From Deltaproteobacteria bacterium (GTDB lineage Bacteria > Myxococcota_A > Polyangia > Fen-1088), in the NCBI GenBank assembly GCA_033763315.1, contig JANRKS010000007.1:1-64000 (forward strand): a stretch of 64,000 nt of DNA, read 5' to 3'. Made by a program: the position numbers and the translations under genes. Under the pieces are notes generated by a model, which was not told where the DNA came from, searched no databases, and saw only the letters and a program-made list of their open reading frames with translations. Positions within the stretch are counted from its first letter, which is position 1. Each line of letters starts with the position of its first letter. Below are positions 33,585-50,644 of the stretch, piece by piece.

Positions 33585-34952
33585 ATGACTTATTCTCGCT
33601 TTGGCTTAATCGCCTTCATCGTTGCGGCGTTGGCGGCCCAAGCTCCGACCGCGTTTGCGATCGACGAAACGATCACTGACATCAAGATTCGCGAAAACAA
33701 CCGCACAAGCGAAGACACCATTCGCGCCATGGCGGGCGCCGACATTGGCGACGACCTAGAGAGCGACACGCTCGAGTCGATACGCGAGCGGCTTAACAAC
33801 AGCGGCATGTTCGCCGACGTTGACGTGTTCTGGGAGCCCTACAAGGGCGGCGCGCGCGTGGTGATCACGGTGCGCGAGAAGTTCCCCTGGGCGCCGGTGC
33901 CCACGTTCTCGCTTTCGCCAGGCAACATTTCATTTGGTGCCGTCCTCGTTCACGGCAACCTGTGGGGCCGCGGCAAACAAGGTGTTATCGGTGGCCGCAT
34001 CTCGAACGTCAACTCGGGTGCGGTGCTGGGCTACCGCGATCCGGCGTTGCTTGGGACGTGGATGTACTGGGAGTTTCAAGGCGTCTTCAAGGACCAAACG
34101 ATTCCGGAATTCGCAACGGGTGGCATCTACTCGAATTACGCTCTTCGTGAAAACGACCTGCGCTCGTTCGGTGTCGTCACACGGTTCGGTGTGTTTTGGT
34201 GGCGTCGCGTCCGCACCGAAGTGGGTTGGGATTTCACGGATTGGAAGTACCGTGACCACCGCTACTATGACGGCGATACGAAAGCAGGCGCGCCCCCTGC
34301 CCTGGGCGTGGATCCAGGTCCAGGGGCCGAAAGCGCGACGGTGGGCGAAGGTGTGGCCGCCCTGCGCTTCGATTACCGTGCGCGTGAGCACGCCATCGTG
34401 ACCGGCAACTCCTTCGGCGTGGGTTTACGTTTGGGCTCGCCCCAGTGGGGCTCCGACAAAAAGATCGATTACTGGAAGCTGGGCGGTGAATACATGCACG
34501 GCTTGCGAATTCTGCGGCGAATCAACTGGATCAACACCGCCGGGTTCAACGTGGGCGAACGGTTGCCGCTGTGGTCCGAAAACTGGGCGGGCGGAGCCAA
34601 CCTGCGCGGTTACCAATACATGCGGTTCCGTGGCGACACCCACGCCTACTTCGAGAGTGAGTTTCACTTCCCCCTGTTCTCGATCTCGCAACTGGACGTT
34701 CGGGCGCTGGGATTTTACGACCTGCATTCAGTGTGGTGGCGCAACCAAGACTCGCTGCGAACCGATGGCCGCCGCTTCCTGGGCGAGGTCTACCAACCCA
34801 CGGGGTTCAAGCTGACACGCGACATTCACCACGGCGTGGGGGGCGGTTTGCGGTTTTACCTTCGCACGGTGGCGGTTCCTCTTGTGGGCGTCGATTATGG
34901 GTACGGTATTGAAGATGGGGTGTGGCGCTTGGTGCTGGTGGTGGGCGCGTAG
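33585..34952 (+). CDS. Omp85/TamA-like outer-membrane barrel with a single POTRA domain
   Basis: Signal peptide; ITDIKIRENNRT..FADV..VITVRE POTRA; NLWGRG, GGANLRGY and GVGGGLRF. Confidence 0.75.
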   Translation: MTYSRFGLIAFIVAALAAQAPTAFAIDETITDIKIRENNRTSEDTIRAMAGADIGDDLESDTLESIRERLNNSGMFADVDVFWEPYKGGARVVITVREKFPWAPVPTFSLSPGNISFGAVLVHGNLWGRGKQGVIGGRISNVNSGAVLGYRDPALLGTWMYWEFQGVFKDQTIPEFATGGIYSNYALRENDLRSFGVVTRFGVFWWRRVRTEVGWDFTDWKYRDHRYYDGDTKAGAPPALGVDPGPGAESATVGEGVAALRFDYRAREHAIVTGNSFGVGLRLGSPQWGSDKKIDYWKLGGEYMHGLRILRRINWINTAGFNVGERLPLWSENWAGGANLRGYQYMRFRGDTHAYFESEFHFPLFSISQLDVRALGFYDLHSVWWRNQDSLRTDGRRFLGEVYQPTGFKLTRDIHHGVGGGLRFYLRTVAVPLVGVDYGYGIEDGVWRLVLVVGA

Positions 34953-34957
34953 GCCGG

Positions 34958-35833
34958 ATGCGCAAGTATGTGCGGTGGTTGCCGCTCGCCTTTCTTGCCT
35001 TCGCCCTTGCGAAGCTCAAACCCTGGAAAACTGAGTTTGCGAATGTGAACGCCTGGCCGCTGCTGCTGGGCTTGCTCATAAACTTCTGTGTGTACTTGCC
35101 ACTGCGGACGCTGCGGTGGCGCACAACCTTGTCGTCTCCCCCGCGATTTATGCGGCTTTACTGGGCGCAGATCGAGGGCATCGCCGTGGGCGGAGCCGTG
35201 GGTTTTGGCGCGCAAGACGTGGTGCGGGCCGCGCGCGTGCGCAACGACATGAGCCGCTTCTCAGACGACTTCGGCGCCACGCTGGCCGAACGCTTGGCAG
35301 AGACGCAGGCGCTGGCGTTGATGTTGGCGGGCGCCACAGCTTTGAAGCTTGTGCCCTCGTGGGGTTGGCTGCCCTCGCTGGGTGCGGGCCTGGGATTGGT
35401 CGCCATTGCAAAGCTGGGCCCGCGGCTATCACTTGTGTTTGCGCGTTGGCCAAAGATTGCCCGTGCTTTGATTGCGGTGTCGGGCGCACTAACGGTGGCC
35501 AAGGTGGCAAAGGTGGTGGCTTTTTCGTTGCTGGGATGGGCCACCGAGGTGGTGATTCTTGTGCTGAACTTCTTGGCATTTTCGTTGCCGGCGTTGTTCA
35601 GCAACGCAGTGTTGGTGGTGATCGGCATCAACGTGGCGATCACTTTCCCTGGCCCGCCCGCCAGCGTGGGCACCTTCGAGGCTGGTGTGGCCGGGACGTT
35701 GGCTTGGCGGGGCATAGCGGCAGATAAGGCGCTAGCATTTGCCCTCGCTTATCACGTGATCATGGCTTTGCCGGTCTATGCTGTGGGAGCGGGCATCGTT
35801 GTGGCGCGCGCCTACCGGCGCAAGCCTGCGTGA
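34958..35833 (+). CDS. UPF0104/lysylphosphatidylglycerol synthase TM-like flippase
   Basis: Multiple TMs; LRTLRW, ERLAE and PASVGTFE. Confidence 0.75.
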   Translation: MRKYVRWLPLAFLAFALAKLKPWKTEFANVNAWPLLLGLLINFCVYLPLRTLRWRTTLSSPPRFMRLYWAQIEGIAVGGAVGFGAQDVVRAARVRNDMSRFSDDFGATLAERLAETQALALMLAGATALKLVPSWGWLPSLGAGLGLVAIAKLGPRLSLVFARWPKIARALIAVSGALTVAKVAKVVAFSLLGWATEVVILVLNFLAFSLPALFSNAVLVVIGINVAITFPGPPASVGTFEAGVAGTLAWRGIAADKALAFALAYHVIMALPVYAVGAGIVVARAYRRKPA

Positions 35834-37002
35834 GTTTCACACGTCTTGGGAAAGTTCACAGCCAAAGCTGTTGAGGGCCAACCGAGCACGCGTTCATAAA
35901 CGCCCAAAACCTTCCCGCACACCGCGGACCAATCGAAGGCCTGCACGATTTCTCTTCCCTGACGCACGCGTTCACTCGCGCCGTCTCGCTTGGCCTCAGC
36001 AATGGCGGGCACCAACGCACGCACAAGTGATTCCGTGGAGATGTCATCCGAAAGCGTCACCGTGGCCCAGTGCTTGTCTTTGCGGCACGCCTGCACGAAC
36101 GGGGTCGCCACCACAGGCTTGCCGGCGGCGAGCGCCTCAAGCAAGATGATCGAGAAGGTCCCAGCGCGGGCGGGCAAAACGCAAAGGTCGGCGGTGGCAT
36201 ACACGTCGGGGCGCTCCTCAAAAACCGAACCCAAGAACACGACGTTGTCGCGCGCCGCCTGCGGCACCATGGCTTTATGTCGTTCTGTGCCTGAAGGCTT
36301 CTCTTCGCCGGCAACCAACAGGCGCACATCGGGATGCACTTTGAGGATCTCGGGCAGCGCATTGAACATGAGATCAGGTCCATTGCGCGGCTCTAAGCGG
36401 CCCAACATGAGAATGTTGAACTTGCCATCGCGGTAGCGTTGCATCGGCTTGCCCGAGGACATGGCGCGCACGTCAACGCCGTTGGGTATCACCTCGCTAT
36501 CGAAGGTGACGAGCTTTCCCATCGCCAACCGCGCCGCTTCTGAAACGGCGATCACAGCTTGATGCCGTGCCATCGACCAACGATAAAAACCACGAAACAG
36601 GCGGCGGACGCGCGCCATGTCGTTCATCGGCGAGTGAAGGGTCGCAATGGTGGGCAAGTTCGACAGAAGATAAAGCAGCACAGGCAAGCCCACGTCGCTT
36701 GGGCCGTGCACGTGAACGAGATCAAACCGTTCACGTGCCAAGGTCTTGTGCAAATTCCAGGCGACTCGCGGCCCAAATGTACTGGCGCTGGCGGTTCCCA
36801 GAGCGCCATAGCGGGTTCCACTGCCAACGCGCAACACCCAATCCTCATCACGCGGACCGCGCCACTGCTTAACGCGAGGCAAGCCTGTAATGACCTTTGC
36901 ATCCACGCCCACGCGACGCAACCCTTGCGCCAAGTGATACACGTGCTCTTGGATCCCACCCAGGGTTGGGTAGTAGTTCTCACACAACAGCGCGACCTTC
37001 AT
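35812..37002 (-). CDS. GT4 glycosyltransferase (PimA-like)
   Basis: YYPTLGGIQEHV, IPNGVD, LGRLEPRNG and FSIILLEALAAG. Confidence 0.85.
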   Translation of the reverse strand: MKVALLCENYYPTLGGIQEHVYHLAQGLRRVGVDAKVITGLPRVKQWRGPRDEDWVLRVGSGTRYGALGTASASTFGPRVAWNLHKTLARERFDLVHVHGPSDVGLPVLLYLLSNLPTIATLHSPMNDMARVRRLFRGFYRWSMARHQAVIAVSEAARLAMGKLVTFDSEVIPNGVDVRAMSSGKPMQRYRDGKFNILMLGRLEPRNGPDLMFNALPEILKVHPDVRLLVAGEEKPSGTERHKAMVPQAARDNVVFLGSVFEERPDVYATADLCVLPARAGTFSIILLEALAAGKPVVATPFVQACRKDKHWATVTLSDDISTESLVRALVPAIAEAKRDGASERVRQGREIVQAFDWSAVCGKVLGVYERVLGWPSTALAVNFPKTCETHAGLRR

Positions 37003-37115
37003 GGGAAACTGCCCGCCTCGTTTATCGTAGAATGCAGCGAAGAACAATGCCCCTGAAGGGCGAAGCGGTTGGTCCGCCCCGGGTGCGTAGAAAATGACCC
37101 GCTCGTCCATCCGAC

Positions 37116-39041
37116 GTGGGCGCCCTTAATGCAAAAATGCAGCGCGCCCAGTACTCTCCCGGCGTGTTGCGTGCGCCTGCAGCGAAAACCTGGCTGATTC
37201 TACCCGCGATCTTTTTGATCGCGCGGTGCCTTTCCACCGTGGCGCTCTATGCCTTCGTGACGCCCAACGGCGGGCACGTGACTGAAATCCCCTGGCGCTT
37301 TGGCCATGTGGCGTGGCTGTCTGAAACGGGCACCTTCTTGGTCCTGGCCGCCCTCGTGGGATATGCCACGCAGCGCGCAGGCAGCCGAACAAAGCACGCG
37401 CGTTGGTACCTTTGCTTTGCCTTGCTGTTCGGCTACGCGGTGGTCGCCGAAATCGACGTGCATCTGCGGCGCTGGTTGGGATTGCGGCTGAACCTGGTGT
37501 TTTTGCGCCACTTGCTTCATTCCGCGAGCCAAGGCGGCTTCTGGGAGACGCTGTCGCACTTCCTGGCGCAGGATTGGCAAGCCATCGCGCTGTCGGTGGT
37601 GCTTTTGGCGGCGCCGGCTTTTGCGGTGTGGCGCGTGGGCGCGAAAACCGCTGACCCACAATCACGCTGGACCTACCCTGCGATGGTTGTCGTGGGTGGC
37701 GTGGCCTTGGCGGCCAGCGCTCAACTGGGGATCGCGGTGCGCAAATGGCGCATGATTAGCCCTTGGCCTTACGGCATGAGCATGGACTTGGCGCGTGCCT
37801 TCGCCGAAGGGGACAAGCCGCCCACGTCGCAGCAGATCGCTCAACTTCAATCCTTGGTCGGTGACCCGCGGGCGCGAAACCCTGCATACCCCCTGTGGCA
37901 CTCTGGCGCGTCCAAGGCCGACGCACACAAAAACTTCGATGTCTTTCTTATCGCCGTGGAATCGATGCGCGGTTGGGCAAGTGACTTGCGCGCAGCGGAC
38001 GCGCGCCGCCGCCTGCCGAACCTGCACCGCTTGTTTGCCGAGGAGGGTGTGTTCTTCCCGCACGCTCACAGCAACGGCTATCCCTCAGGCGAGGGCAACG
38101 TGCACCTTCACCTCGGCGTGTGGAGCCATCCCGCGCGTGCCCTTGCGGCCGAACACGTTGGCATCGCTTCCCGCTCACTGCCCGAAATCTTGCGCGACAA
38201 AGGCTACGTCACACGCTGGTTTGCCGGCAACGATCCCAGCTTCGACAACCTGCAGCACTTCATGGGCCGCTGGTTTCACAAATGGGAAGTGATTGAAGGC
38301 GGCGATGTGGCGCTGGCCCAGCACGCCGTGAAGGTGTACGACGAACTTGGCGACAAGCAGCCACGCTTCATCTCCGTCTACACGGCGTCAACCCACCCTT
38401 TTTACGAGTTGCCCGCAAGCGAAGGCCCCAAGCCGCCCGATCCTGAACAGGCCTATTTAAAAGCATTAACGTTCGCCGATCGTTCGTTAGGGGTGATCTT
38501 CGATCATGTGCGTGCCCGAGGGCGTTTGGACAAGACGCTGTTTGTGATCACTGGTGACCACGCGCAACCAAATCATTGGCAGCTTGAACATGATGCCGAG
38601 GTGGGCCTGCCCAACGCCGGTCGCACCTGGACCAGCCTTGTGATTGCCGGCCCCGGCATTGCCGCCGGCCAGGTGCGCGAAGACGCTTCGTCACACGTTG
38701 ACGTGCCGCCAACGGTGCTGGGATACCTGGGCATCGGCGCCGACAACCATTTCTTCGGCCGCGACTTGCTGGCCGACACAAAGCCCCGCCCGATCGTTGC
38801 CACCTTTGGTGGAGGCGCCTCAGTCATTCTGGGTGACACAATGCTGATCGGCGATCTCTCGGGGCCCGAGCGCTCGAAATACCGTTACGACCAACAAAAC
38901 AACGAAAACCCAGCCGCGTACCAACACGGTGAAAAGATCCCATTGGCCCCCGGTGATGCGCAGCGATTCGAAAGCGTGGTTGGCGCGTTAAAGGCGTTTG
39001 CATGGCTGGCGGATCACGATCGGTTGCGGCCAGCGGAGTAG
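37116..39041 (+). CDS. LTA-synthase/sulfatase-superfamily membrane protein (start uncertain)
   Basis: About 5 N-terminal TMs; IAVESMR, THPF, ITGDH and SHVDVPPT. Confidence 0.75.
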   Translation: MGALNAKMQRAQYSPGVLRAPAAKTWLILPAIFLIARCLSTVALYAFVTPNGGHVTEIPWRFGHVAWLSETGTFLVLAALVGYATQRAGSRTKHARWYLCFALLFGYAVVAEIDVHLRRWLGLRLNLVFLRHLLHSASQGGFWETLSHFLAQDWQAIALSVVLLAAPAFAVWRVGAKTADPQSRWTYPAMVVVGGVALAASAQLGIAVRKWRMISPWPYGMSMDLARAFAEGDKPPTSQQIAQLQSLVGDPRARNPAYPLWHSGASKADAHKNFDVFLIAVESMRGWASDLRAADARRRLPNLHRLFAEEGVFFPHAHSNGYPSGEGNVHLHLGVWSHPARALAAEHVGIASRSLPEILRDKGYVTRWFAGNDPSFDNLQHFMGRWFHKWEVIEGGDVALAQHAVKVYDELGDKQPRFISVYTASTHPFYELPASEGPKPPDPEQAYLKALTFADRSLGVIFDHVRARGRLDKTLFVITGDHAQPNHWQLEHDAEVGLPNAGRTWTSLVIAGPGIAAGQVREDASSHVDVPPTVLGYLGIGADNHFFGRDLLADTKPRPIVATFGGGASVILGDTMLIGDLSGPERSKYRYDQQNNENPAAYQHGEKIPLAPGDAQRFESVVGALKAFAWLADHDRLRPAE

Positions 39042-39057
39042 AGGGTGGGCTCCTCCG

Positions 39058-40749
39058 CTATTGCAAGTCTTTCACGAAAATGGCGTTGCCGCTCACGATG
39101 GCGATGCGCTTGCCATCGGGACTTGGCGCCACCTCACCAGGAACACGGGCGCTCGCGACAACGCGACGTTCACCTGTGAGCGGTGACACCATAAGAAGTT
39201 CGCTGTGGCAATAGGTCTCGAAAAGGCCTTTGCACTTGCTGACCCACACAAAGGCTCTGGGGTTTACAGGATCGTCTACGGTGCGAATGAATTGAGGGAG
39301 CAGGCGGCCTTCGTTGGTGGCAATCACGTTACCGACGAGAGGTTGATCCTCGGGCGAAATCAACGAAAGGCCCAAGTCGATGTTTGACATGAAGATCTTG
39401 AGGCCCGCAGCCGTGATGACCGGAAAGGCGGGAAACTGAACATGGGTAGGAAAGGCTCCCAGAACTTCTTCAGTTCCTCTACTTGTAAGTTTTCTAAACT
39501 CCCAGTTCGTTCTGCCATTGATGGTGCCGTTGCCCTCTAGGCCGCTGAACTGCACTTTGGTTAATACGCCGGTGTTATCGCTCGTCCATCGCAACAAACC
39601 TGGCTGCCCTTGCGCCAGCTTCTGGCCTGTTTCTAAGGAAAAGATCTGCGTGCCCTTGCCCCCGAAAACCTCGCGCGCAACCATCGAGCCATCAGGGGAT
39701 ACAAGCCCGCCGGGTGCAGGCAAGGAACGCAAGACGGGGCCGTGATCGGAAGTGAACAAGACTTCGGCCAGAACATCATCGGCAGCCAGGTCGTGTGCAG
39801 TCACTGCCGCTGTCACAAAAACCTTTTGACCTGAAGGATCCCAGCTCAGCGGTGGCTTGAAGGAGCCGGAGGACAACGTCAGAGGCGCTGATCCATCCGT
39901 GGCCACACGTCGGATTGAAGAGGGAAGCGCGGGCGTTGGCCGAAGCGTGAGCGACCAAATCTTGGGTTGAGAATCTGGAAAGTAGACCAACGCCGAGCTA
40001 TCAGGATTCCAGGCGAGGTTCAATCCGCCTTCATCGGCAATCTTCATGCCCAAATCATCGGGCTGCTGCGGGTATTGGCAGCCGCGAAGAAACTCAAGCT
40101 CCGTTCCGGAAGGGTCGAGCGGATCTCGCTCGGCGACGTCGTTGTTGATTTTAAAGAGTTCAATCACTGTCTCGTTGGGAACAGGAACGAGCTTGATCGC
40201 TCTTTCACCGCATGTCCTCTGCCATAAGCTGAGACCGCTAGGAACCAACACGTCCTCCCCGTCGACCCCAAATGGTTTCTGCAACGTTGAAGACTGCGCG
40301 GCGCCAACTAGGAAGGGGCTCCCAAATGAAGTGACGCGTCCATTCTCCTGTGGAGGACCGTCGAAGCTTGGCCGCAAGAACCCGTAGACATCGATGCGTT
40401 GGAAGACGGACCCTTCGATGATTTGAAACGGCGGATTCTCAACGCTTGCCCGCGCAACCTGGATCACGGGCAGGTCGCAAACTTGGTTCGCGCAAGGAGA
40501 ATAGAATGACCTCAGACCGCCATAATCCGCGGATGTCTTATCGTAGCCAGGAAAGCCTGGGCGCCCCCTGGTTGTAGCCGCTACGACACTACCGCTGAAG
40601 TCCATCGGCCCTTGTTCCGACGCTTCAGAAGGAATCCGTAAAGCGAATGTGCCCACGACCTCGCTGCCGAGGTGAAGCCCAAGCGCCCCGTCTCCACACG
40701 ACGACATTAGAACGTTGAGAAGACAGACGCAGACGTGTCTCTTTGTCAT
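39058..40749 (-). CDS. Putative lipoprotein with a C-terminal TolB/WD40-like beta-propeller
   Basis: Lipobox-like SSC; WNPDS, WDPSG, VSPDG and PSPDGKRIA repeats. Confidence 0.6.
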   Translation of the reverse strand: MTKRHVCVCLLNVLMSSCGDGALGLHLGSEVVGTFALRIPSEASEQGPMDFSGSVVAATTRGRPGFPGYDKTSADYGGLRSFYSPCANQVCDLPVIQVARASVENPPFQIIEGSVFQRIDVYGFLRPSFDGPPQENGRVTSFGSPFLVGAAQSSTLQKPFGVDGEDVLVPSGLSLWQRTCGERAIKLVPVPNETVIELFKINNDVAERDPLDPSGTELEFLRGCQYPQQPDDLGMKIADEGGLNLAWNPDSSALVYFPDSQPKIWSLTLRPTPALPSSIRRVATDGSAPLTLSSGSFKPPLSWDPSGQKVFVTAAVTAHDLAADDVLAEVLFTSDHGPVLRSLPAPGGLVSPDGSMVAREVFGGKGTQIFSLETGQKLAQGQPGLLRWTSDNTGVLTKVQFSGLEGNGTINGRTNWEFRKLTSRGTEEVLGAFPTHVQFPAFPVITAAGLKIFMSNIDLGLSLISPEDQPLVGNVIATNEGRLLPQFIRTVDDPVNPRAFVWVSKCKGLFETYCHSELLMVSPLTGERRVVASARVPGEVAPSPDGKRIAIVSGNAIFVKDLQ

Positions 40750-40757
40750 ACAGGCCC

Positions 40758-42389
40758 TCAAAAAAAGATGCCCACAGAAACTGTTCCTCGCCAAGACGTC
40801 TGTACCTTTAACGCCGGGGAGATAGACGCGGTGTCGTAAGCCTTAAGCAGGTGGAACGGTCTGGCGCCCTCAAACCTTAGGTAAGCACGAAATCGAAAAG
40901 GGACATCAAGCTGTAAAATGGGGCTCAACTCACCTCCAAGTGAACTCTTTAAGCCCTCTGATGGCGACCTAAAGTAGACAAACGAAGGATGAATTTGCGC
41001 ATTTGTGTACTCAATCAGAGCAATACTTCTTTGTTCGAGTCTGAAAACCCCAGCCTCAATACCGGCGGACAATGTTACGTACTCAAAGTCTTTGGGGTAA
41101 AGCAGCAAGGCGGAAAGATCCCACTGCTCTTGTTCTCGGATGTACGATTCCTTGTGACCCGAAGTCTTGCTTCCAGCGATCCGAGCCTCAAGCGCGAAAC
41201 GACGCCGGTCTTGGCGGTAGGATAAGGTTGTCACCCACGCTGAAATTCCTATCATTGGATCTGTCCGATAGCCCCCGCCGAGCGACGCGCTATGCACGGT
41301 CCGCGGTGCATCTCCCTTTCTCACCATGCGCGCGTAAGTGAGGTGTTTCATCTCGTCGCTGGCCACGATCTCCGTAAGCCCCGCCCGAACCTTGTAGTCG
41401 CCAGCGAGCATGTGGTTGCTTCCTCTCTTCGTCACTTCGTAGCGGCCAGACTCAAGCGCAACCATCGCACCACCTGCGTGCGATGCAATCTCGGCCACAG
41501 GCAAGTTCAAGCCCGCGTCGCCATCGAGCCGGGTCACCGTGTAGCCGCCAGCATCGATGAACTGCAAAGCACCGATGGTTCCGTCTAAGCGGCGAGGGCG
41601 CGTCAACGCCAAGTCCTCGCGGCCGCCCCAGTTCATTCGGAACGTGGGATGTTGAGGGCCAGCCTCCGTGCGCAATGTGGCCGACATGGTCTCGCGGGAC
41701 GAGAAGTCGAACGCCTCCGAGACCGTGACAACCCCATCGCCGTTGGCGTCGCCAGCGCCGCGCATCGCAGACACGAAGAAGTGCGAGAAGAACGATGCTT
41801 TAAGAGACTCGGCTTCTTGTGAATCTTCGTGTGCAGCGCTTGAGGTTAAGATTGCAAAGCCTTTCGGCAACGGTTGAGCCTGCAAAGCCACCTCGAAAGC
41901 CGGCGTCGGGCGGCCTCCCTTCACGCGCGTGGCGGTGCCGGACCGGCAGGAATCAATAACAAGCACCCTGGTTGCCGCTGATGATCCCTCAACGAGCAGG
42001 CGCATTTCTTCCACATGAAGTTGTGTGCCCGCCATTTTGAGATGGTTGCCGTCGGCGTGTCCCGAGTAGTACACAAACAACACAGCCTCATCGGCGCGCT
42101 CGCGAATACGTGCGTTCAACCTGTGCAGAGTGTCTCGCACATCTGCAGCGCGCACGCCGTTCAAAAGCAACACTTGATCAGGCGGAAAGTCGCCCACGTC
42201 TCGCAAGGTCTGCGCCACATTTTGAGCGTCACGTTCAGCGTACCGCAGACGCGGCTCCGTTCCGTCACCGATATTTGCACCGACAACCACCGCAAAGCGC
42301 GCCGCATGGCGATCTTCAGCGCCGCTCGCCAGCGAGGCGTGGCAAGCCAGCGACGCCACCACCACAACGCCTAAAGGGTTGCCAAGCAT
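40758..42389 (-). CDS. Exported caspase-family (C14) protease with a putative C-terminal outer-membrane beta-barrel
   Basis: Signal peptide; FAVVVGAN, LRYAERDA, YYSGHAD (His) and IDSCRSG (Cys); amphipathic strands ending VSVGIFF. Confidence 0.8.
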   Translation of the reverse strand: MLGNPLGVVVVASLACHASLASGAEDRHAARFAVVVGANIGDGTEPRLRYAERDAQNVAQTLRDVGDFPPDQVLLLNGVRAADVRDTLHRLNARIRERADEAVLFVYYSGHADGNHLKMAGTQLHVEEMRLLVEGSSAATRVLVIDSCRSGTATRVKGGRPTPAFEVALQAQPLPKGFAILTSSAAHEDSQEAESLKASFFSHFFVSAMRGAGDANGDGVVTVSEAFDFSSRETMSATLRTEAGPQHPTFRMNWGGREDLALTRPRRLDGTIGALQFIDAGGYTVTRLDGDAGLNLPVAEIASHAGGAMVALESGRYEVTKRGSNHMLAGDYKVRAGLTEIVASDEMKHLTYARMVRKGDAPRTVHSASLGGGYRTDPMIGISAWVTTLSYRQDRRRFALEARIAGSKTSGHKESYIREQEQWDLSALLLYPKDFEYVTLSAGIEAGVFRLEQRSIALIEYTNAQIHPSFVYFRSPSEGLKSSLGGELSPILQLDVPFRFRAYLRFEGARPFHLLKAYDTASISPALKVQTSWRGTVSVGIFF

Positions 42390-43120
42390 CACAAGCCAAC
42401 TCGTTTGTTGAAGTTCACACGAGTCGTGCGGCAACCAAACGGCGCGACGTCGAGGTTGCGGCGCAAGGCAACTGTCAGCGTTTCGATCTCTTGTCTTTCT
42501 TCGCAGAGAAACAGAAGGAGGCTTTCAGCACCTGCGGCATTGTCTAAAACGACCGCATCAGGCAGCAGAATCTTGTCCGACGTTGTTAGTGCGTACAACC
42601 AGCCCTTCGGAGGAGCCAACGCGGACACGGTGCCTGTACCGTCGATGCCGATTACCCCCACGAATCCCGGCGCCGGAGAAGACACTTCAAAACGCAAGCG
42701 ATCCCCCGCTGCAAGTTCATCGCCCTCCAGTAAACGCTCAACCGGTTTGGTACCGCCCTTAACAAGCACGTCGAGGTGCAGACCAGAAGCCTTGCGACGA
42801 ACGTTTTGTACCGACGAGAACGGCAATGCATCACGCACCGGCGTCGGGGTCGGGACAAATAGCAACCCCACCACCGCCGCGACCGCAAGCAACGACAACG
42901 CTGTGGCCCTGCGCGCGCCTGCCGGCCGCAGAGGCTTCACCACCTCCCAAGCTGGAGCGGGAACGCGTGCCTGCCTAACGAAGGCCGCACAGCCTTCGCA
43001 TCCCTGCAGATGCTTCGCCACGAATATGGCACGCGAGTCATCGGTGAGTTCTCCTTGCGTGTATCGATCCAAAAGGTATTCCGAAGGGCACGAGCGCCTT
43101 GTTGAGCTGTCAGCGGTCAT
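42389..43120 (-). CDS. Zinc-binding anti-sigma (zf-HC2) with a TM helix and a DUF4384-like periplasmic domain
   Basis: HLQGCEGC; TM helix; VRRKASG; GDRLRFEV..GFVGVIGIDGTG; TGATG coupling on both sides. Confidence 0.75.
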   Translation of the reverse strand: MTADSSTRRSCPSEYLLDRYTQGELTDDSRAIFVAKHLQGCEGCAAFVRQARVPAPAWEVVKPLRPAGARRATALSLLAVAAVVGLLFVPTPTPVRDALPFSSVQNVRRKASGLHLDVLVKGGTKPVERLLEGDELAAGDRLRFEVSSPAPGFVGVIGIDGTGTVSALAPPKGWLYALTTSDKILLPDAVVLDNAAGAESLLLFLCEERQEIETLTVALRRNLDVAPFGCRTTRVNFNKRVGL

Positions 43121-43620
43121 CAGTTCTTCCCTCGGCTTTGGCAGGCGTGGCTGGGCTCGTCAGCCCACAAACAAGCAAGAACGATCTTGAGATCAGCGAT
43201 GCGGCTGCACACGGTTCTTTGTGACACCCCGAGCAACTCTGCGATTTCTTCCTGCGTCATCTCGTCGACGTAGTAGTGCAAGGCCAACGTTTGCAAGTCG
43301 GGAGGCACACCGCGGAGCAGTACACCCAACGGCGGTCCACTTGGCTGCACCGGCGATTGCAACGTCTGCAGCAACATTGAATGCTTGCCCGCGTCCCTTA
43401 GAAGATTAAGGCAATGGTTCGTTGTGACGCGGTAGAACCACCCCACGTTCACTTCATAGAGGCTGTCGGCCCGCCCCATCAACGCCAGGAACACCTCGTG
43501 GCAAACGTCCCTCGCGAGGGCGTCGTTGCGCAATAGTTTACGGGCCCTTCGATACACGAGGTTGCCGTATCTATCGTAAAGCGCGGCCAGCTTGAGCCGT
43601 CGGTCGTCCTCTAACGCCAT
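43120..43620 (-). CDS. ECF sigma factor
   Basis: LYDRYG..VYRRA, ARDVCHEVF, WFYRVTTNHCLN and MTQEEIAELLGVS. Confidence 0.88.
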   Translation of the reverse strand: MALEDDRRLKLAALYDRYGNLVYRRARKLLRNDALARDVCHEVFLALMGRADSLYEVNVGWFYRVTTNHCLNLLRDAGKHSMLLQTLQSPVQPSGPPLGVLLRGVPPDLQTLALHYYVDEMTQEEIAELLGVSQRTVCSRIADLKIVLACLWADEPSHACQSRGKN

Positions 43621-43760
43621 TTTCAGAGGAGTAAAACACCTAGGACGAACATTTTTAGAAGCCGAAAGACGTTTTTCTTTTCTGAGCCTGCAAACAGCAG
43701 GAGGCCCGCCAAGCAAGCCTGGGCCAGGCGACGGCCATCGGTCATAATGCCCGGCTGCAC

Positions 43761-45290
43761 GTGAGCCAGTCCCCCTCCCCCACTTCCGCAACGGCCTCCA
43801 AGCATGGCGCCAGCGACGCGCGCTACGCCTTTCGCGGCGGGCTTGTGCAGTTGCTCGGAATCTTGGGGCAAGCCTTCATGACTCTGCAGGGAGTCATCGT
43901 GCCGCGTCTATTTGGGCCCACGGCCTATGGACTTTACAGCGGTCTGCGCGATCTGGTTGAGATTCTGGCGCGGGCGGCCTGCCTCGGCACCGACAAGGGC
44001 CTTTACCGGTTCGTGGCAGGCCACTGCGCTGCCGGCGAGCCGGAGCGAGCCGCAGATGCGACCGCGGTTGCATTGCGCATCACAGCCGTCACGGGTGTGG
44101 TGCTAGCGGGCGTGGCAGCTGTGGCGGCGCCTTTCATTGCAAAAGTGTTTCATCGTCCCGAGGTCGCGGGGCTGTTGCCATTCATCGCGCCCGCGATCTT
44201 TGGCCTTTCTATGACATTCACGGCTGTGGCTGCGTCGCTTGGCTACAAGCGTCCCAAGGCACAATTGCACGTGCGCGGCATCGCAGAGCCCTTGCTTTTG
44301 GTGGGCGCAACCGCCGTGGCAGGCGTTGTGCTTCCCAGGATCACAACTTTGGCCGTGATTCATGGGGCTGTCTATTTCGTCATTGCGTGGTTCGCCGTGA
44401 GCCGCCTGCCACGAGATGTGTACGCGAGTCTGTGGTCTCGCCTTCGCCACGCTCGCTATCCGGGCTTGCTCGCCTTTTCACTACCTGTGGCGGCACTTGA
44501 GTTGACCAACATCGTCCGGCACCGCGTGGACGGCATGGTTGTGTTTGCGATGTTTCCACCCAAGACGGCCGCGCTATACTTCGCTAGTGAAACGATTGGC
44601 CGCATCGCTGCCAATATCCGCTACGCGTTTGACGGGATTGTGGCGCCGATGTTCTCAGAAGCCATTCACACCCACGATCGGCTCCGTCTGCAGAACTCCT
44701 ACCGCGTTCTCACGCGCATGGTTGCCACGTTGTCGTTTCCGCTTGCCATGTCGCTGATCAGTTTGCGGGAGCGGCTGGTGTTGCTTTCCGGCGATGCGTT
44801 TGCCTCGGCGGCCATGCTTGTGCCGTTTCATGTCAGCGGACATCTGGCGAATGGCGTGCTTGGCCTCGCGGGCCACGTTCTCATGATGGCGGGGCGAACT
44901 CGCTGGCTTTTGATCAATCAATTGATCGCTGCCGGCGTCAACATACTCGCTTGCGTGCTCCTCATCCCTCGCTTCGGCCTGCTGGGCGCCGCTTATGCTT
45001 TTCTTCTGGGTTGGGCGGTGTCGCTCGGCACCACGCTGGTTGAGGTCGCCATCGTTGAACGCGTTCAGCCGTTTGGCGCAGGGCTATTTAAGCCGGGCGC
45101 TGCCGCCGTGCTCATGTATCTGGCGCAGCGGCAGGCCCAGCACATAGACAATGTGTTCATCAATGTCGGTGTAACTTTACTTGGCGGTCTCGCTGTTTAT
45201 GCGACGTCCTTGGTTGCCCTCGGCCTTGACCCCACCGAGAAGGCTGCCGTGGCAAAACAATGGCAACGGCTCCGGCGGAGGTCCGAATGA
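43761..45290 (+). CDS. Oligosaccharide flippase (Wzx/MOP family)
   Basis: About 12-14 TMs; RLFGPTAYGLY and LLIPRFGLLGAA. Confidence 0.8.
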   Translation: MSQSPSPTSATASKHGASDARYAFRGGLVQLLGILGQAFMTLQGVIVPRLFGPTAYGLYSGLRDLVEILARAACLGTDKGLYRFVAGHCAAGEPERAADATAVALRITAVTGVVLAGVAAVAAPFIAKVFHRPEVAGLLPFIAPAIFGLSMTFTAVAASLGYKRPKAQLHVRGIAEPLLLVGATAVAGVVLPRITTLAVIHGAVYFVIAWFAVSRLPRDVYASLWSRLRHARYPGLLAFSLPVAALELTNIVRHRVDGMVVFAMFPPKTAALYFASETIGRIAANIRYAFDGIVAPMFSEAIHTHDRLRLQNSYRVLTRMVATLSFPLAMSLISLRERLVLLSGDAFASAAMLVPFHVSGHLANGVLGLAGHVLMMAGRTRWLLINQLIAAGVNILACVLLIPRFGLLGAAYAFLLGWAVSLGTTLVEVAIVERVQPFGAGLFKPGAAAVLMYLAQRQAQHIDNVFINVGVTLLGGLAVYATSLVALGLDPTEKAAVAKQWQRLRRRSE

Positions 45291-46363
45291 CGACGGCGTT
45301 AACGCGAACCACCCCACCTCGCGTGTTGTTTTTCCTGCAAGGGCAAAACGTGCCGTCGAGCCGGTTTCGCGTCGCCCAATTCATCCCGCATTTCGAGAGC
45401 CACGGCATTGCCTGCACAGTTCGTGCTCCCTATCCAAGTTTGCAAGGAGACGTCAAAGCGCGGTTCTTCCATGGCTGGCGGCGTCAGTTCACGCGGCCGT
45501 TAAGTGTGGGCGTGCGGCTTAGCCAAATGAAAGGCATAAGGAATCACGATCTCGTGTACTTGCAGCGACCTCTGCTGAGTTACTACACAACGGCGCTCGA
45601 AGAAGTTGTGTGCCGCCTTCGACCGGCGATCTTCGATATAGACGATGCGATCTTTCACAACTTCTTTGGCTGGGAGCGCTTCAAGATCAAACGCATCGTG
45701 AAGCTTTGCCGGCATCTGGTGGCGGGCAATCAATACTTGGCCGATTTTTTCGAGGCGCCCCACAAGACAACCATCATACCCACTGTGGTTGATGCAGAGC
45801 GATTCGTCGTTCGACCTGAACCGCCGGAGGACCAACCCTTCACGATTGTGTGGACAGGGCTGTCATCAAATCTAAAGGAACTGGCGCCGGTGCTGCCTGG
45901 AATCAAGGCCGCGCTCGACGAGACCCGCGGGCGGCTTGTGGTCGTCGCCGATCGGCTCGACGAAGATGTTGTGCGCGGCTTGCCCGTTGACTTTGTCAAA
46001 TGGTCTCCCGAAACCGAGGTGCAAGCCTTGGGTCGTGCGCACGTGGGCATCATGCCCCTGCGGGATACACCCTATAACCGAGGCAAGTGCGGCTTTAAGC
46101 TGATCCAGTACATGGCGCGAGGCATGTGCGTGGTGGCTGCGCCGGTGGGCGCCAACGTAGAGATCGTGCGCGCTCACAAAGATGGTCTGCTTGCCAACAG
46201 CTCCGATGATTGGGCCGACGCGCTCGTCAGCTTGGCTCGCGATCGGGATATGCGCCATCGCATGGGCCAATCGGGCCGAGAACGCGTTGAACAACGTTAC
46301 AGCATCAAAGCCGTGCTTCCGCAGTTTCTCGATTTGTTCGCACGCTTCGGTGCAGGCGCGTAA
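45287..46363 (+). CDS. GT4 glycosyltransferase
   Basis: PSSRFRV, FDIDDAIF and GKCGFKLIQYMA; ATGA overlap with the flippase. Confidence 0.85.
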   Translation: MTTALTRTTPPRVLFFLQGQNVPSSRFRVAQFIPHFESHGIACTVRAPYPSLQGDVKARFFHGWRRQFTRPLSVGVRLSQMKGIRNHDLVYLQRPLLSYYTTALEEVVCRLRPAIFDIDDAIFHNFFGWERFKIKRIVKLCRHLVAGNQYLADFFEAPHKTTIIPTVVDAERFVVRPEPPEDQPFTIVWTGLSSNLKELAPVLPGIKAALDETRGRLVVVADRLDEDVVRGLPVDFVKWSPETEVQALGRAHVGIMPLRDTPYNRGKCGFKLIQYMARGMCVVAAPVGANVEIVRAHKDGLLANSSDDWADALVSLARDRDMRHRMGQSGRERVEQRYSIKAVLPQFLDLFARFGAGA

Positions 46364-47870
46364 CAATGCGCTCACTCACGCGCAGAGCGTTGGCTGCAAT
46401 CGTGAGGCTGGGATTCACGCCGGCCGCCGTGGGCATCACGCTGCCGTCCGTGACGAAGACATTCGGTACACCGTGAAGGGCGCAATCGACGTCCAACACA
46501 GACTTCTTGGGATCAACGCCCATGCGTGCGGTGCCCACCGCATGTGAGAAGCTATCCACAAGGTTGACCTTGCCCACCAAGCCTCCGGCCTTCCGCAAGA
46601 TCTTGCGCGCGGCTTTGATCAGTTGGTGCCGCCGCCTCAGATCGTTTTCAGAATAGCTATGCTCGATGCTTGTGACCGGCAGGCCTAAGTCATCCAAACG
46701 TTCTGACAAGAAAACGCGGTTGTTGACCTGTGGATCGTCTTCCGCGATGCATATCAGCGTTTGAATGTGATTCGCCACCGTGTGTGCAGCGACGCGAAAG
46801 CCCTTCGGCGCTAAAACGCGCACAACCTCGGGCGGCGGCATCATCATATCCTGGATGACCCCCACGGCGCGCCCTGTGGCCGCGCGTTCGAATTCATACA
46901 AGTCGCTGATGCAGACTTGTTTGTGGTTGAGCTTTTGCGGATTGGTCGCGAAGGGAAACACATACCCCACCATCGCGTTGCAATGCCGCATGAGGTTGCG
47001 CCCCAGAAGGTTCGAGCGGTCGGTGGACTGCAAGCCGGAGCGCAAGAGTACGGCCGGTGTTTGCACGGCGCCAGCAGCCACCACGACAGCATCTGCCGTG
47101 ACTGTGTATTGTTTACCGGTGTGTTTGTCGTGAACCAACACGCCGCGTGCAAGGTGTCCCTCGGTGAGAATGCGCAACACCGTAGCGCCGGCGACGATTG
47201 TTAAGAAATTGTGATCCGCGTTCGCAAGAAACGTCATCGCGACGTCGTTTTTCGCGCTCACTTTGCACGGGAAGCCATCGCACGTTGAGCACCGCATGCA
47301 AGCCGTGCCGCGGCTGCCTTGAAAGTCAATCGCTGTCGGCACCGAGAACGGGTGAAAGCCAGCAGCTTTCGCCGCTTTGAAGATACGTTCGGCGGGCGGC
47401 GTCAGTGGCTGCGCTGGCAGTGGGTAAGGGGCGGACCGCGGCGGCTCGGTGGGATCCTCGCCGGCGTTGCCGTGCACCCCCAACAACCGCTCCGCCCGGG
47501 CGTAAAACGGTTCGAGATCCGCATAACGCAAAGGCCACTCGGCGAAATCAGTTTCGCGTAAGCGTAGGGCAGCGCCACCGAAGAAGACTGAATTGCCACC
47601 CACAACAGCGTTGAGCACAACGTCTTTCGCCGCGCGGTCATATTGCGCAATGCTGACAGGAGAGTCCGCCCTGTATCGCCCCTCCAGCAAGATCTTGCTG
47701 CCACTCCAATCGTCGTCGTCGCGCAACGGCCAGGGGCCGCGCTCAAGCAGCAGCGTCTTAACACCGGCTCGCGATAAGTCGTAAGCTGCGGCACCGCCGC
47801 CGAAGCCCGAACCCACGATGACAACATCGTAGTGTTCATCCAAAGGTTTGCTGCGCCCCTCCTGCCCCAT
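46305..47870 (-). CDS. GMC-family oxidoreductase
   Basis: GSGFGG, VGGNS, CMRCSTCDGFPC, HAVGTARMG and NPSLTI. Confidence 0.88.
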   Translation of the reverse strand: MGQEGRSKPLDEHYDVVIVGSGFGGGAAAYDLSRAGVKTLLLERGPWPLRDDDDWSGSKILLEGRYRADSPVSIAQYDRAAKDVVLNAVVGGNSVFFGGAALRLRETDFAEWPLRYADLEPFYARAERLLGVHGNAGEDPTEPPRSAPYPLPAQPLTPPAERIFKAAKAAGFHPFSVPTAIDFQGSRGTACMRCSTCDGFPCKVSAKNDVAMTFLANADHNFLTIVAGATVLRILTEGHLARGVLVHDKHTGKQYTVTADAVVVAAGAVQTPAVLLRSGLQSTDRSNLLGRNLMRHCNAMVGYVFPFATNPQKLNHKQVCISDLYEFERAATGRAVGVIQDMMMPPPEVVRVLAPKGFRVAAHTVANHIQTLICIAEDDPQVNNRVFLSERLDDLGLPVTSIEHSYSENDLRRRHQLIKAARKILRKAGGLVGKVNLVDSFSHAVGTARMGVDPKKSVLDVDCALHGVPNVFVTDGSVMPTAAGVNPSLTIAANALRVSERIVTRLHRSVRTNRETAEARL

Positions 47871-47880
47871 GTGCCTTCGA

Positions 47881-49044: not shown

Positions 49045-50077
49045 GGAAGCAGGATCTCAGTTCAGCGTATGTTTCTTGGGTTGTGGGCAGATCAACCTAC
49101 GACACATCAAGATTCTGCGGAAACTCAAGCCAAACGCAACGGTGGCCGTGGCCAGCCGCTCCGCCGACGTGGCGAAAGACTATGCGAGCAAAGTCGCCGC
49201 GCACACTTTCTTTGGCTCGTATGAGGAGGCAGTGGCGGCGGGGCATGACCTTTACGTTGTCGGCACGATCCCTAGCAGCCACTTCTCATTGGTAAAGGCG
49301 ATCGTGCAAGGCGGGCACCATTGTTTGGTGGAAAAGCCCGCGTTTAACAGCCTTGCCGAATTTCAAACACTCTGGCCGTCCCTCTTGGCAAGCCGCGGCG
49401 TGTTCATGGTCGCGGAGAACCTTCACTTCGCACCCTTTCAGCACAAGCTGAAGCGCCTACTTGGAGATTCGGAGTTAGGCCAGCCATTGTTTTTGGATCT
49501 CGTGCGGCTAGGCCGATCCAAACCGAAAGGCTGGCGCATAGATCCGGTAGAGATGCCGTTGGGGGCCCTTCACGAAGGCGGCGTGCACTGGATACGTCGC
49601 TTGCTGGATTTGGCCTCAGTGTTCGAGCCCGACGGCAGCGCAGGCATCGTAGACGTCACAGCGTTTGCACCACCTAAGCCGCTGACAGCGACGCCACACG
49701 AAGACACGATGATGGTGGTCACGCGGCACAAGTCAGGCCTTACATCTCGCCTCCTTCACACGTGGGCCCTGCCGTGGCGCTTTTTGCCTTTCGATGTATC
49801 AAAGCTTCACGCGGAACACGGCGCGGTCTACTTCGACGCGCGGGGCATTTATGGTCGCAAGTATGGCCCCCGTGGCAAACAACTGATCTTACCGAACATC
49901 ACCGATGCGGGAGGATACGAAGCCATGTGGCGCAATCTGCTGAATGCCATCGCCACCGGCACGCAGCCCGCCCTTTCTTTGCAAACGATCTACCAGGACT
50001 TTGCATTCATGGATGCGGCATACAGATCGAAGACGTCGGGGCGCCCTGAACGTTTGCTGCCAGCCGTGGCTTCTTAG
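49043..50077 (+). CDS. Gfo/Idh/MocA oxidoreductase
   Basis: LGCGQI, CLVEKP and GALHEGGVHW. Confidence 0.85.
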   Translation: MEAGSQFSVCFLGCGQINLRHIKILRKLKPNATVAVASRSADVAKDYASKVAAHTFFGSYEEAVAAGHDLYVVGTIPSSHFSLVKAIVQGGHHCLVEKPAFNSLAEFQTLWPSLLASRGVFMVAENLHFAPFQHKLKRLLGDSELGQPLFLDLVRLGRSKPKGWRIDPVEMPLGALHEGGVHWIRRLLDLASVFEPDGSAGIVDVTAFAPPKPLTATPHEDTMMVVTRHKSGLTSRLLHTWALPWRFLPFDVSKLHAEHGAVYFDARGIYGRKYGPRGKQLILPNITDAGGYEAMWRNLLNAIATGTQPALSLQTIYQDFAFMDAAYRSKTSGRPERLLPAVAS

Positions 50078-50632: not shown

Positions 50633-50644
50633 GCTCCTCCACTC

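Follow-up and report, generated by a model that had tools for sequence, protein, structure and literature searches.

In Myxococcus xanthus, the anti-sigma factor DdvA carries a periplasmic caspase-family domain, which the cited passages of PMC11506125 propose to be the site-1 protease of the anti-sigma, followed by RseP; in the same passages, an RseP-type protease degrades DdvA that lacks its ectodomain. In the Craspase system, as described in the cited passages of bioRxiv 10.1101/2022.08.17.504292, Csx30 is cleaved by a caspase-like protease and a sigma factor of the extracytoplasmic function (ECF) type is controlled thereby. Here we describe a four-gene cassette from a soil-type myxobacterial genome, which encodes an ECF sigma factor, a zinc-type anti-sigma factor, a caspase-family protease predicted to sit on an outer-membrane barrel, and a lipoprotein. 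It occupies 43620..39058 on the minus strand of a 64,000-nt stretch (GCA_033763315.1, contig JANRKS010000007.1, positions 1-64,000, forward strand), which we call the window. We suggest that the cassette is best explained as the local copy of a conserved envelope-signalling module of Myxococcota, whose core consists of three genes (sigma, anti-sigma and caspase-barrel). The caspase may be the dedicated site-1 protease of the adjacent anti-sigma, a claim on which we regard the balance as even.

As far as the cited passages go, DdvA shares with the cassette its occurrence in Myxococcota, a zinc-type N-terminal domain, one transmembrane helix, a flexible juxtamembrane linker and a periplasmic caspase-clan His/Cys protease. 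However, its protease is a ~900-aa TPR-CHAT region within the anti-sigma itself, with an incomplete active site and with self-cleavage in trans described there as unproven (PMC11506125), whereas the cassette has a separate C14 protein with an outer-membrane barrel, a small DUF4384-type anti-sigma ectodomain and lacks any TPR or CHAT match. In the published account, as far as it is cited here, DdvS governs a CBASS/CRISPR island; in contrast, defence-system libraries (including PADLOC) give no meaningful match for the cassette, and no defence genes are linked to it.

The Craspase system, in the parts of its description cited here, comprises Csx29 (TPR-CHAT), which cleaves Csx30, and Csx30 holds an ECF-type sigma (RpoE) together with Csx31. 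It resembles the cassette in the caspase-clan protease, the sigma-sequestering substrate and the linker, cut in Csx30, between the sigma-binding part and the C-terminal domain, which is DUF4384 in one Csx30 group. According to the same bioRxiv passages, DUF4384 frequently occurs in fusion with protease domains and makes up the C-terminal domain of some Csx30 proteins, and a passage of PMC7475262 places it in cyanobacterial orthocaspases. However, Craspase is cytoplasmic, RNA-guided and CHAT-type and reportedly cuts after Met or Leu (as quoted in PMC11506125), whereas the protease of the cassette is of family C14, is placed in the periplasm and has a predicted basic P1. Cas7-11, Csx29, Csx30 and Csx31 find no match in the cassette with PADLOC or in the flanking genes with Pfam.

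The ECF25-type anti-sigmas, e.g. the partner of Nostoc SigG, have the same architecture as the anti-sigma of the cassette, i.e. a zinc domain, one transmembrane helix and DUF4384 (supplementary file 1, PMC7826278), and the passage concerned mentions no caspase neighbour for ECF25. Caspase domains are genomically coupled to ECF sigmas also in the EACC2-caspase systems, where an ECF sigma stands with a DUF1822 TPR protein and autoproteolytic activation is proposed (Kaur et al. 2021, eLife, PMC8195603). These are described as conflict systems with an EACC2 module and variable C-terminal sensors, and the main text of that paper holds no anti-sigma term. With the NCBIfam EACC1-type caspase model, whose cut-off is 140, the window caspase falls short at 65.5 bits, and it has no EACC or DUF1822 match.

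Escherichia coli sigmaE monitors the outer membrane: RseA is cut juxtamembrane by the site-1 protease DegS and the stub goes to the site-2 protease RseP. DegS is an inner-membrane-anchored trypsin-PDZ serine protease, activated by the C-termini of unassembled porins, and RseA has neither a zinc motif nor DUF4384. Pfam finds no RseA, DegS or PDZ match in the four cassette proteins. FecA-FecR-FecI is similar to the cassette in that the genes for an outer-membrane barrel, an anti-sigma of the inner membrane and an ECF sigma stand together. However, the cassette has a predicted 8-stranded OmpA-like barrel that bears a protease instead of a TonB-dependent transducer, and TonB_dep_Rec, Plug, STN and FecR have no Pfam match in its four proteins. 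In the Rcs system the lipoprotein RcsF, together with barrels, is kept from the inner-membrane protein IgaA, and their contact after envelope damage is the signal. Rcs is a conceptual parallel only, since there is no homology and it has neither a protease nor a sigma.

The cassette belongs to none of the DdvA, Craspase, FecIRA and RseA/DegS families, whose defining parts were searched for and not found. Its new element, judged against the cited parts of the DdvA, Craspase, EACC2 and ECF25 accounts, is the separate C14 protease, predicted to be exported, on an outer-membrane barrel. Full-text literature searches returned no description of an ECF sigma/anti-sigma/C14-barrel module.

Conservation of the module across Myxococcota

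Within the window the genes follow each other in the order sigma > anti-sigma > caspase-barrel > lipoprotein, all on the minus strand. The sigma/anti-sigma junction (at 43120) and the anti-sigma/caspase junction (at 42389) each read TGATG, with one base in common, and a gap of 8 bp (40757..40750) separates the caspase from the lipoprotein gene. Gene content, order and coupling are exactly those given in a preliminary description of the locus, which had been made from the sequence alone.

A scan of Myxococcota with one genome per species gave 591 pattern matches, 548 of them confirmed by tblastn, and the best 80 of the 548 were examined (L numbers below). Open reading frames (ORFs) were called mechanically in six frames, with starts chosen by alignment to the window proteins. 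Relatives of the caspase-barrel protein number 929 at E <= 1e-3 among 7999 candidates; the closest is 53% identical, and all names given by the sources are myxobacterial. The preliminary description had named in advance the co-occurrence of the genes in other genomes as a test. The sigma and the anti-sigma are each found at 77/80 caspase loci, and the propeller lipoprotein of the window at 2/80, so that co-occurrence is borne out for the first three genes and fails for the fourth. Among the 74 loci with all three genes co-oriented, the overlap of the anti-sigma and caspase genes is 4 nt in 49 loci and 1 nt in 6, and that of the sigma and anti-sigma genes is 4 nt in 46 loci and 1 nt in 6.

A quick FastTree was made of 74 caspases (the window and 73 of the 80 loci, with a protein of at least 480 aa). 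It separates a sigma-first clade of 16 (support 100) from a clade of 58. The former includes the window and the loci in which another lipoprotein gene, termed X, lies downstream; in the latter X lies upstream. The window pairs with L001 (support 99).

Four loci lack a match to the sigma, to the anti-sigma or to both. L001 and L026 have neither, and in both the contig breaks off directly upstream. An anti-sigma but no sigma match is present in L043:4354-5917 (Sorangium sp. So ce388); an X-matching ORF extends there over the expected sigma position, and a frameshift or fusion is possible. L017:5704-6993, from a metagenome-assembled contig, has a single 429-aa ORF in which a fragment of the sigma (residues 3-151) is joined to one of the caspase (model positions 49-355), with no anti-sigma and no barrel, and a PD40 lipoprotein gene follows it. 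This fused ORF results from either a deletion or a misassembly. In L011 and L018 the caspase and the sigma/anti-sigma pair are divergently oriented, and in L037:338-5069 ~3.5 kb of intervening other sequence parts X and the sigma from the anti-sigma and the caspase. A conserved fourth gene downstream of the caspase was looked for and rejected, since both the family and the strand vary there (39 minus and 32 plus among the 71 loci with enough sequence).

Five assemblies contribute two copies of the module each to the 80 loci: L019 and L065 (NZ_CP150359.1), L013 and L018, L040 and L051, L016 and L074, and L029 and L053. The module is thus paralogously expanded within genomes. L027 (DATGOH010000058.1), a 4.4-kb contig with a typical myxobacterial module, is binned as the Bacillota genus Fredinandcohnia, which is probably a binning error.

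The caspase-barrel protease, predicted to be exported

The third gene (42389..40758, from ATG 42389) encodes 543 aa, which Pfam, an AlphaFold2 (AF2) model and Foldseek divide into a C14 caspase-family protease predicted to be exported, a beta-sandwich and a C-terminal outer-membrane barrel. Peptidase_C14 (PF00656) matches at 3.1e-15 (56.9 bits against a cut-off of 21.4). In a Foldseek search of the PDB, the N-terminal domain finds caspase-6, -7 and -3 and MALT1 with E-values of 7e-9 to 2e-7. The caspase (p20/p10-like) domain covers residues 31-265 (41595..42299) and holds the dyad in SGH (109-111) and DSCRSG (146-151). His111 (42057..42059), Cys148 (41946..41948), and the putative S1 residues Asp54 (42228..42230) and Asp146 are invariant in the caspase alignment A1. 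With the His/Cys dyad invariant, the protease looks active.

When the family profile is compared with solved structures, only metacaspases match (7qp0 at 1.8e-5, 6w8s, 4f6o, 8a53). The invariant Asp54 aligns with the Asp of the metacaspase 'ND', and the invariant Asp146 aligns with the Asp of DSCHSG, the latter only in a sub-threshold second stretch of the same match (score -4.3). After the catalytic Cys the window protein reads CRSG, compared to CHSG in metacaspases. We take the positions of Asp54 and Asp146 to be the acidic S1 pocket that gives metacaspases and MALT1 their Arg/Lys specificity. The invariant metacaspase-type aspartates imply that the protease would cut after Lys or Arg.

The signal peptide (about residues 1-24, MLGNPLGVVVVASLACHASLASGA, 42318..42389) is hydrophobic and is predicted by alignment rather than by a dedicated tool: across 25 caspase homologues the aligned N-termini are hydrophobic and end in small residues. 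The AF2 model, made with 25 homologues, has a pLDDT of 82.7 and a pTM of 0.75 and shows long antiparallel strands over residues 365-542. These are read as eight strands with short turns on one side and one long loop (462-480), the most variable part of the family alignment. We assign residues 365-543 (40761..41297), which end in ...GIFF, to an 8-stranded OmpA/Ail-like barrel predicted from DSSP and the Atlas structure search. In the latter, residues 352-543 find OmpA_membrane, OMP_b-brl and Ail/PagC (Ail_Lom) barrels with template-modelling (TM) scores of 0.64-0.77 (normalised by hit). The last residue is F, Y, W or L in 71/73 full-length homologues. Pfam gives the barrel no sequence-profile match to any outer-membrane protein family. 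An autotransporter (type Va) reading was rejected, since there is no PF03797 or other Pfam match and the barrel resembles 8-stranded OmpA-like models, not 12-stranded ones. Between the caspase domain and the barrel, DSSP of the AF2 model outlines a beta-sandwich (residues 272-350, 41340..41576), which has no Pfam match and is assigned to no family.

Even-stranded barrels usually leave the N-terminal domain in the periplasm, and the caspase domain would therefore be periplasmic and not surface-exposed. Hence, the caspase is predicted to be exported, with a periplasmic catalytic domain and an outer-membrane barrel as its anchor. Both the export and the barrel had been surmised in the preliminary description, and the N-terminal alignment and the model agree with it on both.

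The anti-sigma factor

The second gene (43120..42389), whose start overlaps the sigma stop, encodes a 243-aa protein predicted to be a single-pass zinc-type anti-sigma with a periplasmic ectodomain of DUF4384 type. Alignment A2 combines the window protein with homologues taken from 58 of the 77 anti-sigma-bearing loci; it omits near-identical copies from Sorangium and Polyangium and three odd-length ORFs. Among these 59 members, DUF4384 is matched in 35/59 (best 1.5e-9) and zf-HC2 in 28/59 (best 1.2e-6) at E <= 0.01. The window protein itself matches zf-HC2 (PF13490) at 5.7e-4 (20.4 bits, just below the cut-off of 22.2) and DUF4384 (PF14326) at 2.1e-3 (18.5 bits, below the cut-off of 27), the latter over residues 136-172 (42605..42715; profile positions 2-38 of 81).

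The zinc anti-sigma motif reads HLQGCEGC (42989..43012), that is H37-x3-C41-x2-C44. The three residues are invariant in the 59 sequences, C11 (43088..43090), a putative fourth, upstream ligand, is conserved in at least 90% of them, and HxxxCxxC is found in 75/76 anti-sigmas. The transmembrane helix (residues 72-90, 42851..42907) is placed by hydropathy within a segment conserved in A2, and a hydropathy window above 1.8 occurs in 72/76 anti-sigmas. The periplasmic part of the window protein has 153 residues, and the ectodomain proper (residues 113-243, 42392..42784) contains two Cys, C206 and C230, invariant in all 59. Pfam finds no TPR, CHAT, RseA or FecR in the anti-sigma, and no longer proteins with the ectodomain fused in them were found, evidence of a kind that the tool rates as weak. 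From the gene adjacency and the motif we infer that the protein binds zinc and inhibits its cognate sigma.

A Lys-Gly motif shared by the protease and the anti-sigma

After the catalytic Cys the caspase family reads D-[AS]-C-R-S-G-x-x-T-R-x-K-G-G, with T-R-x-K-G-G 6-11 residues past the Cys. Counted after D.C[RH]SG, its positions are occupied by T in 77/77, R in 70/77, K in 77/77, G in 77/77 and the last G in 74/77, and the other 3 loci keep TRxKGG. In the window it is TRVKGG (residues 154-159, 41913..41930), a candidate self-processing site. It lies in the only low-confidence loop of the AF2 caspase domain (residues 150-160, pLDDT <50), a position which we take to be that of the intersubunit processing site in caspases.

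A similar motif, [T/E]-R-x-K-G, stands in 72/76 anti-sigmas, 5-30 (median 12) residues past the transmembrane helix and before the folded ectodomain, and three of the four anti-sigmas without RxKG still keep K-G. The copy of the window is VRRKAS (residues 107-112, 42785..42802), a candidate site-1 cleavage site. The preliminary description had singled out this basic VRRKASG linker, which turns out to be the local form of a near-invariant family motif. Its idea of a cut after Arg or Lys also gains from the metacaspase-like S1 aspartates and from the TRxKG in the protease's own loop. A related motif, Y-A-R-L-V-R-K-G-G, marks the hinge between the sandwich and the barrel: RKG is present in 72/73 full-length caspases, and R357, K358 and G359 are invariant in A1. 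In the window VRKG (residues 356-359, 41313..41324) is a candidate release site.

The motif is rare in the controls. R.KG occurs in 0/75 sigmas, in 1/65 X proteins and in 50/1520 (3.3%) shuffled anti-sigmas, and TR.KG in 0.6% of caspases after shuffling. Lys is scarce in these proteins, at 1.4-1.9% of residues. A comparison of the caspase-family and anti-sigma-family profiles, which asked whether the sandwich is DUF4384-like, gave nothing significant, and its sole local match (E 0.1) falls on the TRxKG motifs. The comparison of motifs between the two proteins is post hoc. We suggest that the shared RxKG motif supports a protease-substrate link between the caspase and the anti-sigma. The two proteins are also predicted to meet in one compartment, the periplasm, given the signal peptide and OmpA-like barrel of the caspase and the two invariant Cys of the ectodomain.

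Adjacent lipoproteins

The fourth gene (40749..39058, from ATG 40749) encodes a 563-aa beta-propeller lipoprotein of PD40 type. Its predicted lipoprotein signal peptide (MTKRHVCVCLLNVLMSSC, 40696..40749) ends at the lipobox Cys18 (MTKRHVCVCLLNVLMSS-C18, i.e. ...LMSS-C18), which is at least 90% conserved in 45 sequences; lipidation is predicted. PD40 matches the window protein at 1e-3 (19.4 bits against a cut-off of 20.9) and 22/45 aligned family members, the best at 2.6e-10. The AF2 model (pLDDT 81.7, pTM 0.83) finds with Foldseek the propellers of WD40 proteins (WDR5, TM score ~0.6 by target), TolB (7mx5_B, 4pwz_A) and tricorn, as the preliminary description had guessed. The public gene call, P0121, has 369 aa and starts with MIELF.... 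In the 563-aa ORF, the stretch similar to the L001 homologue already sets in at residue 146, therefore we prefer the long ORF with the lipobox; the deposited call is probably truncated and has lost it.

This family is small (87 representatives at E <= 1e-3 in an exhaustive search), and a homologue follows the caspase only in L001 and L017, so that with the window three loci have a PD40-type lipoprotein. The propeller lipoprotein is thus specific to the immediate lineage of the window and stands outside the conserved core. In most relatives its place is taken by X, a lipoprotein of ~230-300 aa with an invariant lipobox Cys and the start C-D-P-x-V-x-x-D-Y-x-G-E, which belongs to no Pfam or NCBIfam family and finds only Myxococcota hypothetical clusters in the Atlas. 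The X profile matches 65/80 loci (L014:3947-4753, L048:3893-4606, L055:3608-4621, L006:7499-8350 and 61 others) and nothing in the window. X lies directly upstream of the sigma and co-oriented with it in 51 loci, directly downstream of the caspase in 8 and nearby in other placements in 6. It is absent from 6 loci in which both flanks exceed 1.2 kb and from 9 with short flanks. Two X-less loci have other propeller lipoproteins after the caspase, namely L018:7032-9230 (FG-GAP) and L021:4216-7143 (Beta_propel, PF09826).

In total a lipoprotein gene adjoins the module in 69/80 loci (X in 65, a propeller in 4). The FG-GAP, Beta_propel and PD40 lipoproteins suggest non-homologous replacement in one slot, and this slot next to the module seems nearly always to hold a lipoprotein whose identity is swapped. 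Homology between the propeller lipoprotein and X was considered and not counted: hhalign gives a probability of 94%, yet the alignment spans just 56 columns (signal peptide, lipobox and ~35 further residues). The earlier proposal that the lipoprotein senses a ligand cannot be generalised from the window gene, because the propeller is found in 2/80 loci and X stands in its place in most relatives.

The sigma factor and the surroundings of the cassette

The first gene (43620..43120, from ATG 43620) encodes a 166-aa ECF (group 4) sigma-70 factor with Sigma70_r2 (3.9e-11, residues 14-78) and Sigma70_r4_2 (1.3e-07, residues 101-141). TIGR02937 matches at 68.9 bits against a cut-off of 42.9, and all NCBIfam subfamily and equivalog models score far below their cut-offs. 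An ORF starting at 43791 is longer but would run into the divergent flippase gene, and its extension shows no sigma-like sequence. Judged by these profiles, the protein is a standard ECF sigma.

The region 43621..43760, between the sigma and the divergent polysaccharide flippase gene (43761..45290, plus strand), is the presumed promoter region. A scan of 38800-44000 for sigma-70 promoters and terminators gave chance level only, and upstream of the sigma neither crude bipartite k-mer counts nor classical ECF patterns yielded anything. In 9/14 sigma-first loci (L002, L003, L004, L005, L006, L008, L010, L012 and L013) a motif defined post hoc, TGCC[CG]-N16-18-GT[CT]NA[AG], keeps a fixed distance upstream of the sigma start (31-43 nt), with 0 matches on the reverse strand and an average of 0.14 in shuffles. 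It is a candidate for an autoregulated ECF promoter. The upstream region of the window (43621-43700) has only a degenerate version, TTTCGG-N15-GTCCTA. Across the window the motif has 6 matches against 8.9 expected, i.e. at or below chance, and no regulon can be read from it.

G+C is slightly lower in the cassette region (0.54-0.59) than in the flanks (~0.61). Apart from this there is no sign of mobility, and the flanks are ordinary chromosomal genes. Around the cassette, 33585-50077 forms a polysaccharide/envelope biosynthesis cluster with Omp85/POTRA, LPG_synthase_TM, GT4, sulfatase-family, Polysacc_synt_3, GT1, GMC oxidoreductase, GT4 and GFO/IDH/MocA genes. The Polysacc_synt_3 flippase is divergent from the sigma, the sulfatase-family enzyme is convergent with the lipoprotein, GT4 and GT1 transferases and the Omp85 protein belong to the same flanks, and the nuo operon lies farther out. 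The other loci do not share this polysaccharide context.

Elsewhere in the window, three 'planctomycete' PSD/PSCyt-type gene pairs lie within 31 kb (4116-7339, 9935-13748 and 27412-30791), with the domains DUF1592/1588/1585/1595/1587 together with DUF1552, and DUF1549/1553 together with DUF1501. The interval 22179-26655 encodes a 484-aa protein bearing Kazal-type protease-inhibitor domains and, after it, a 1002-aa lamin-tail and PPDK_N ATP-binding protein. The minus-strand ORFs 50135-50719 and 50850-51890 (194 and 346 aa) match no Pfam family at E <= 1e-3.

Proposed mechanism

In the scheme that follows, each proteolytic step, what triggers it, the part played by the lipoprotein and the regulon are all inferred; a slash marks the predicted cut. 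The ECF sigma would be held at the inner membrane by the zinc-type single-pass anti-sigma. The Lys/Arg-specific, metacaspase-like C14 protease would reach the periplasm by export, and its 8-stranded barrel would tether it to the outer membrane. The adjacent lipoprotein, a PD40 propeller in the window and X in most relatives, would be an exchangeable accessory, perhaps the input.

Activation would probably proceed via self-processing at the TRVKGG loop, possibly with release from the outer-membrane anchor at the R-K-G hinge. The motif in the protease's own loop and the related R-K-G in the hinge make self-processing, and possibly release, a probable part of activation. The activated protease would then cut the juxtamembrane linker of the anti-sigma at R-x-K/G (VRRK/A in the window), thus removing the ectodomain. 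A periplasmic stub of ~20 residues would be left, a geometry like that of RseA after DegS. An RseP-type site-2 protease and cytoplasmic proteases would destroy the remainder of the anti-sigma and free the sigma.

Several points weigh against this scheme. The first is geometry: the candidate site lies ~17 residues from the inner membrane, while the protease hangs from an outer-membrane barrel by a hinge of ~10 residues, and the tethered enzyme should not reach the site unless it is released or not yet inserted. The preliminary description had the anchored caspase itself cutting the anti-sigma, perhaps in the linker, which is awkward for the same reason. Because the candidate site is near the inner membrane and the enzyme is tethered to the outer one by a short hinge, we suggest that the active protease is released or not yet inserted. 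The P3 residues (R or Q) of the two motifs do not covary (caspase/anti-sigma RR 65, QR 5, RQ 2, QQ 1; n=73). TRxKGG could merely be a structural part of the active-site loop, and the RxKG of the anti-sigma could be the edge of the folded ectodomain. In the window the residue after the Lys is Ala, whereas the family has Gly, and the DUF4384 and zf-HC2 scores of the window anti-sigma stay under their curated cut-offs. Co-transcription would be expected equally if the protease were only a member of the regulon. Complex prediction for caspase residues 24-360 (with A1) and anti-sigma ectodomain residues 91-243 (with A2) gave a score of 0.01 and a mark of 0.32, which is evidence neither way.

A more specific form of the scheme, to which we give a low probability, turns the geometry into the signal. 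The module would be a spatially gated switch reporting the state of the outer membrane, in which insertion of the barrel keeps the Lys-specific protease off the inner membrane, and failed assembly, or a signal read by the lipoprotein, frees it. A signal read by X or the propeller would trigger self-cleavage at TRxK/G and at the R-K/G hinge, and the freed protease would cut RxK/G ~12-17 residues above the inner membrane, which would set off regulated intramembrane proteolysis.

Alternative explanations

The principal alternative reverses the direction of the link. Expressed under the sigma, the caspase-barrel protein would be its output and act, as a protease of the periplasm or outer membrane, on foreign proteins or on others of the envelope, while the anti-sigma would sense an unrelated signal via DUF4384 and be cut by another site-1 protease. 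Effector genes are common in ECF operons, and co-transcription alone gives no direction. The outer-membrane tether would keep such an enzyme far from the juxtamembrane site, the motifs of the caspase and the anti-sigma do not covary, and, since the neighbours outside the module are variable, the sigma has no other obvious output linked to it. However, a plain regulon member is not expected to keep 4- or 1-nt overlaps with the anti-sigma gene in 55/74 loci across deep clades, nor to share a rare Lys-Gly motif with the anti-sigma. DUF4384 is, in the cited accounts, independently tied to protease domains. We consider this alternative unlikely, though it is the strongest of the rivals.

Against the cleavage scheme one may also suppose that binding or release, not cleavage, carries the signal. 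Here the anti-sigma ectodomain would be a partner or pseudo-substrate that docks on the caspase and checks it, or is held by it. Signalling of the binding type has parallels in RseB for RseA and RcsF for IgaA. The fusion of DUF4384 to caspase domains, as far as the cited descriptions go, suggests an intramolecular regulatory or binding role, and the motif of the anti-sigma is similar to the enzyme's own loop. However, the dyad and the S1 aspartates are invariant in all loci examined, so catalysis is under selection, and we hold a docking role to be improbable.

Quite improbable, too, is a relay like that of cell-surface signalling, as the preliminary description had it, with the caspase staying in the outer membrane: an external ligand would be bound by the lipoprotein or by surface loops of the barrel, and the anti-sigma would receive the resulting conformational change. 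The longest barrel loop (462-480) is indeed the most variable in the family, and a lipoprotein gene adjoins the module in 69/80 loci. However, TonB-dependent transducers are not 8-stranded OmpA-like barrels, a FecR-type domain is missing from the anti-sigma, and the propeller lipoprotein is present in only 2/80 loci. An ectodomain of ~150 aa together with the hinge would also be short for spanning the periplasm.

That the genes are neighbours without shared function and the likeness of the motifs, a post hoc and short match, is coincidental we regard as hardly credible, given the triad in 77/80 loci, the overlapping stop and start codons and the presence in two deeply separated clades.

Significance

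Caspase-family proteases are abundant in multicellular-type bacteria, and almost none has a known substrate. The module offers a candidate protease/anti-sigma pair with a predicted scissile RxK/G and with sigma activity as the readout, so that the function of bacterial C14 proteases becomes testable. If the proposed scheme is true, a caspase-clan enzyme would act as a trans-acting site-1 protease in ECF signalling. It would bridge the self-cleavage model of DdvA, which is unproven, and the cytoplasmic Craspase-Csx30 mechanism, and the orphan DUF4384 would gain a role as a protease-addressed module. If the spatially gated switch is true, it would be the first trans-acting periplasmic site-1 protease of the caspase family and a new logic of envelope surveillance in Myxococcota. 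Last, the module is found in hundreds of genomes (548 confirmed stretches), often in more than one copy. With a family of this size, and with several genomes carrying two copies, it is probably a major, so far unrecognised signalling route of Myxococcota.

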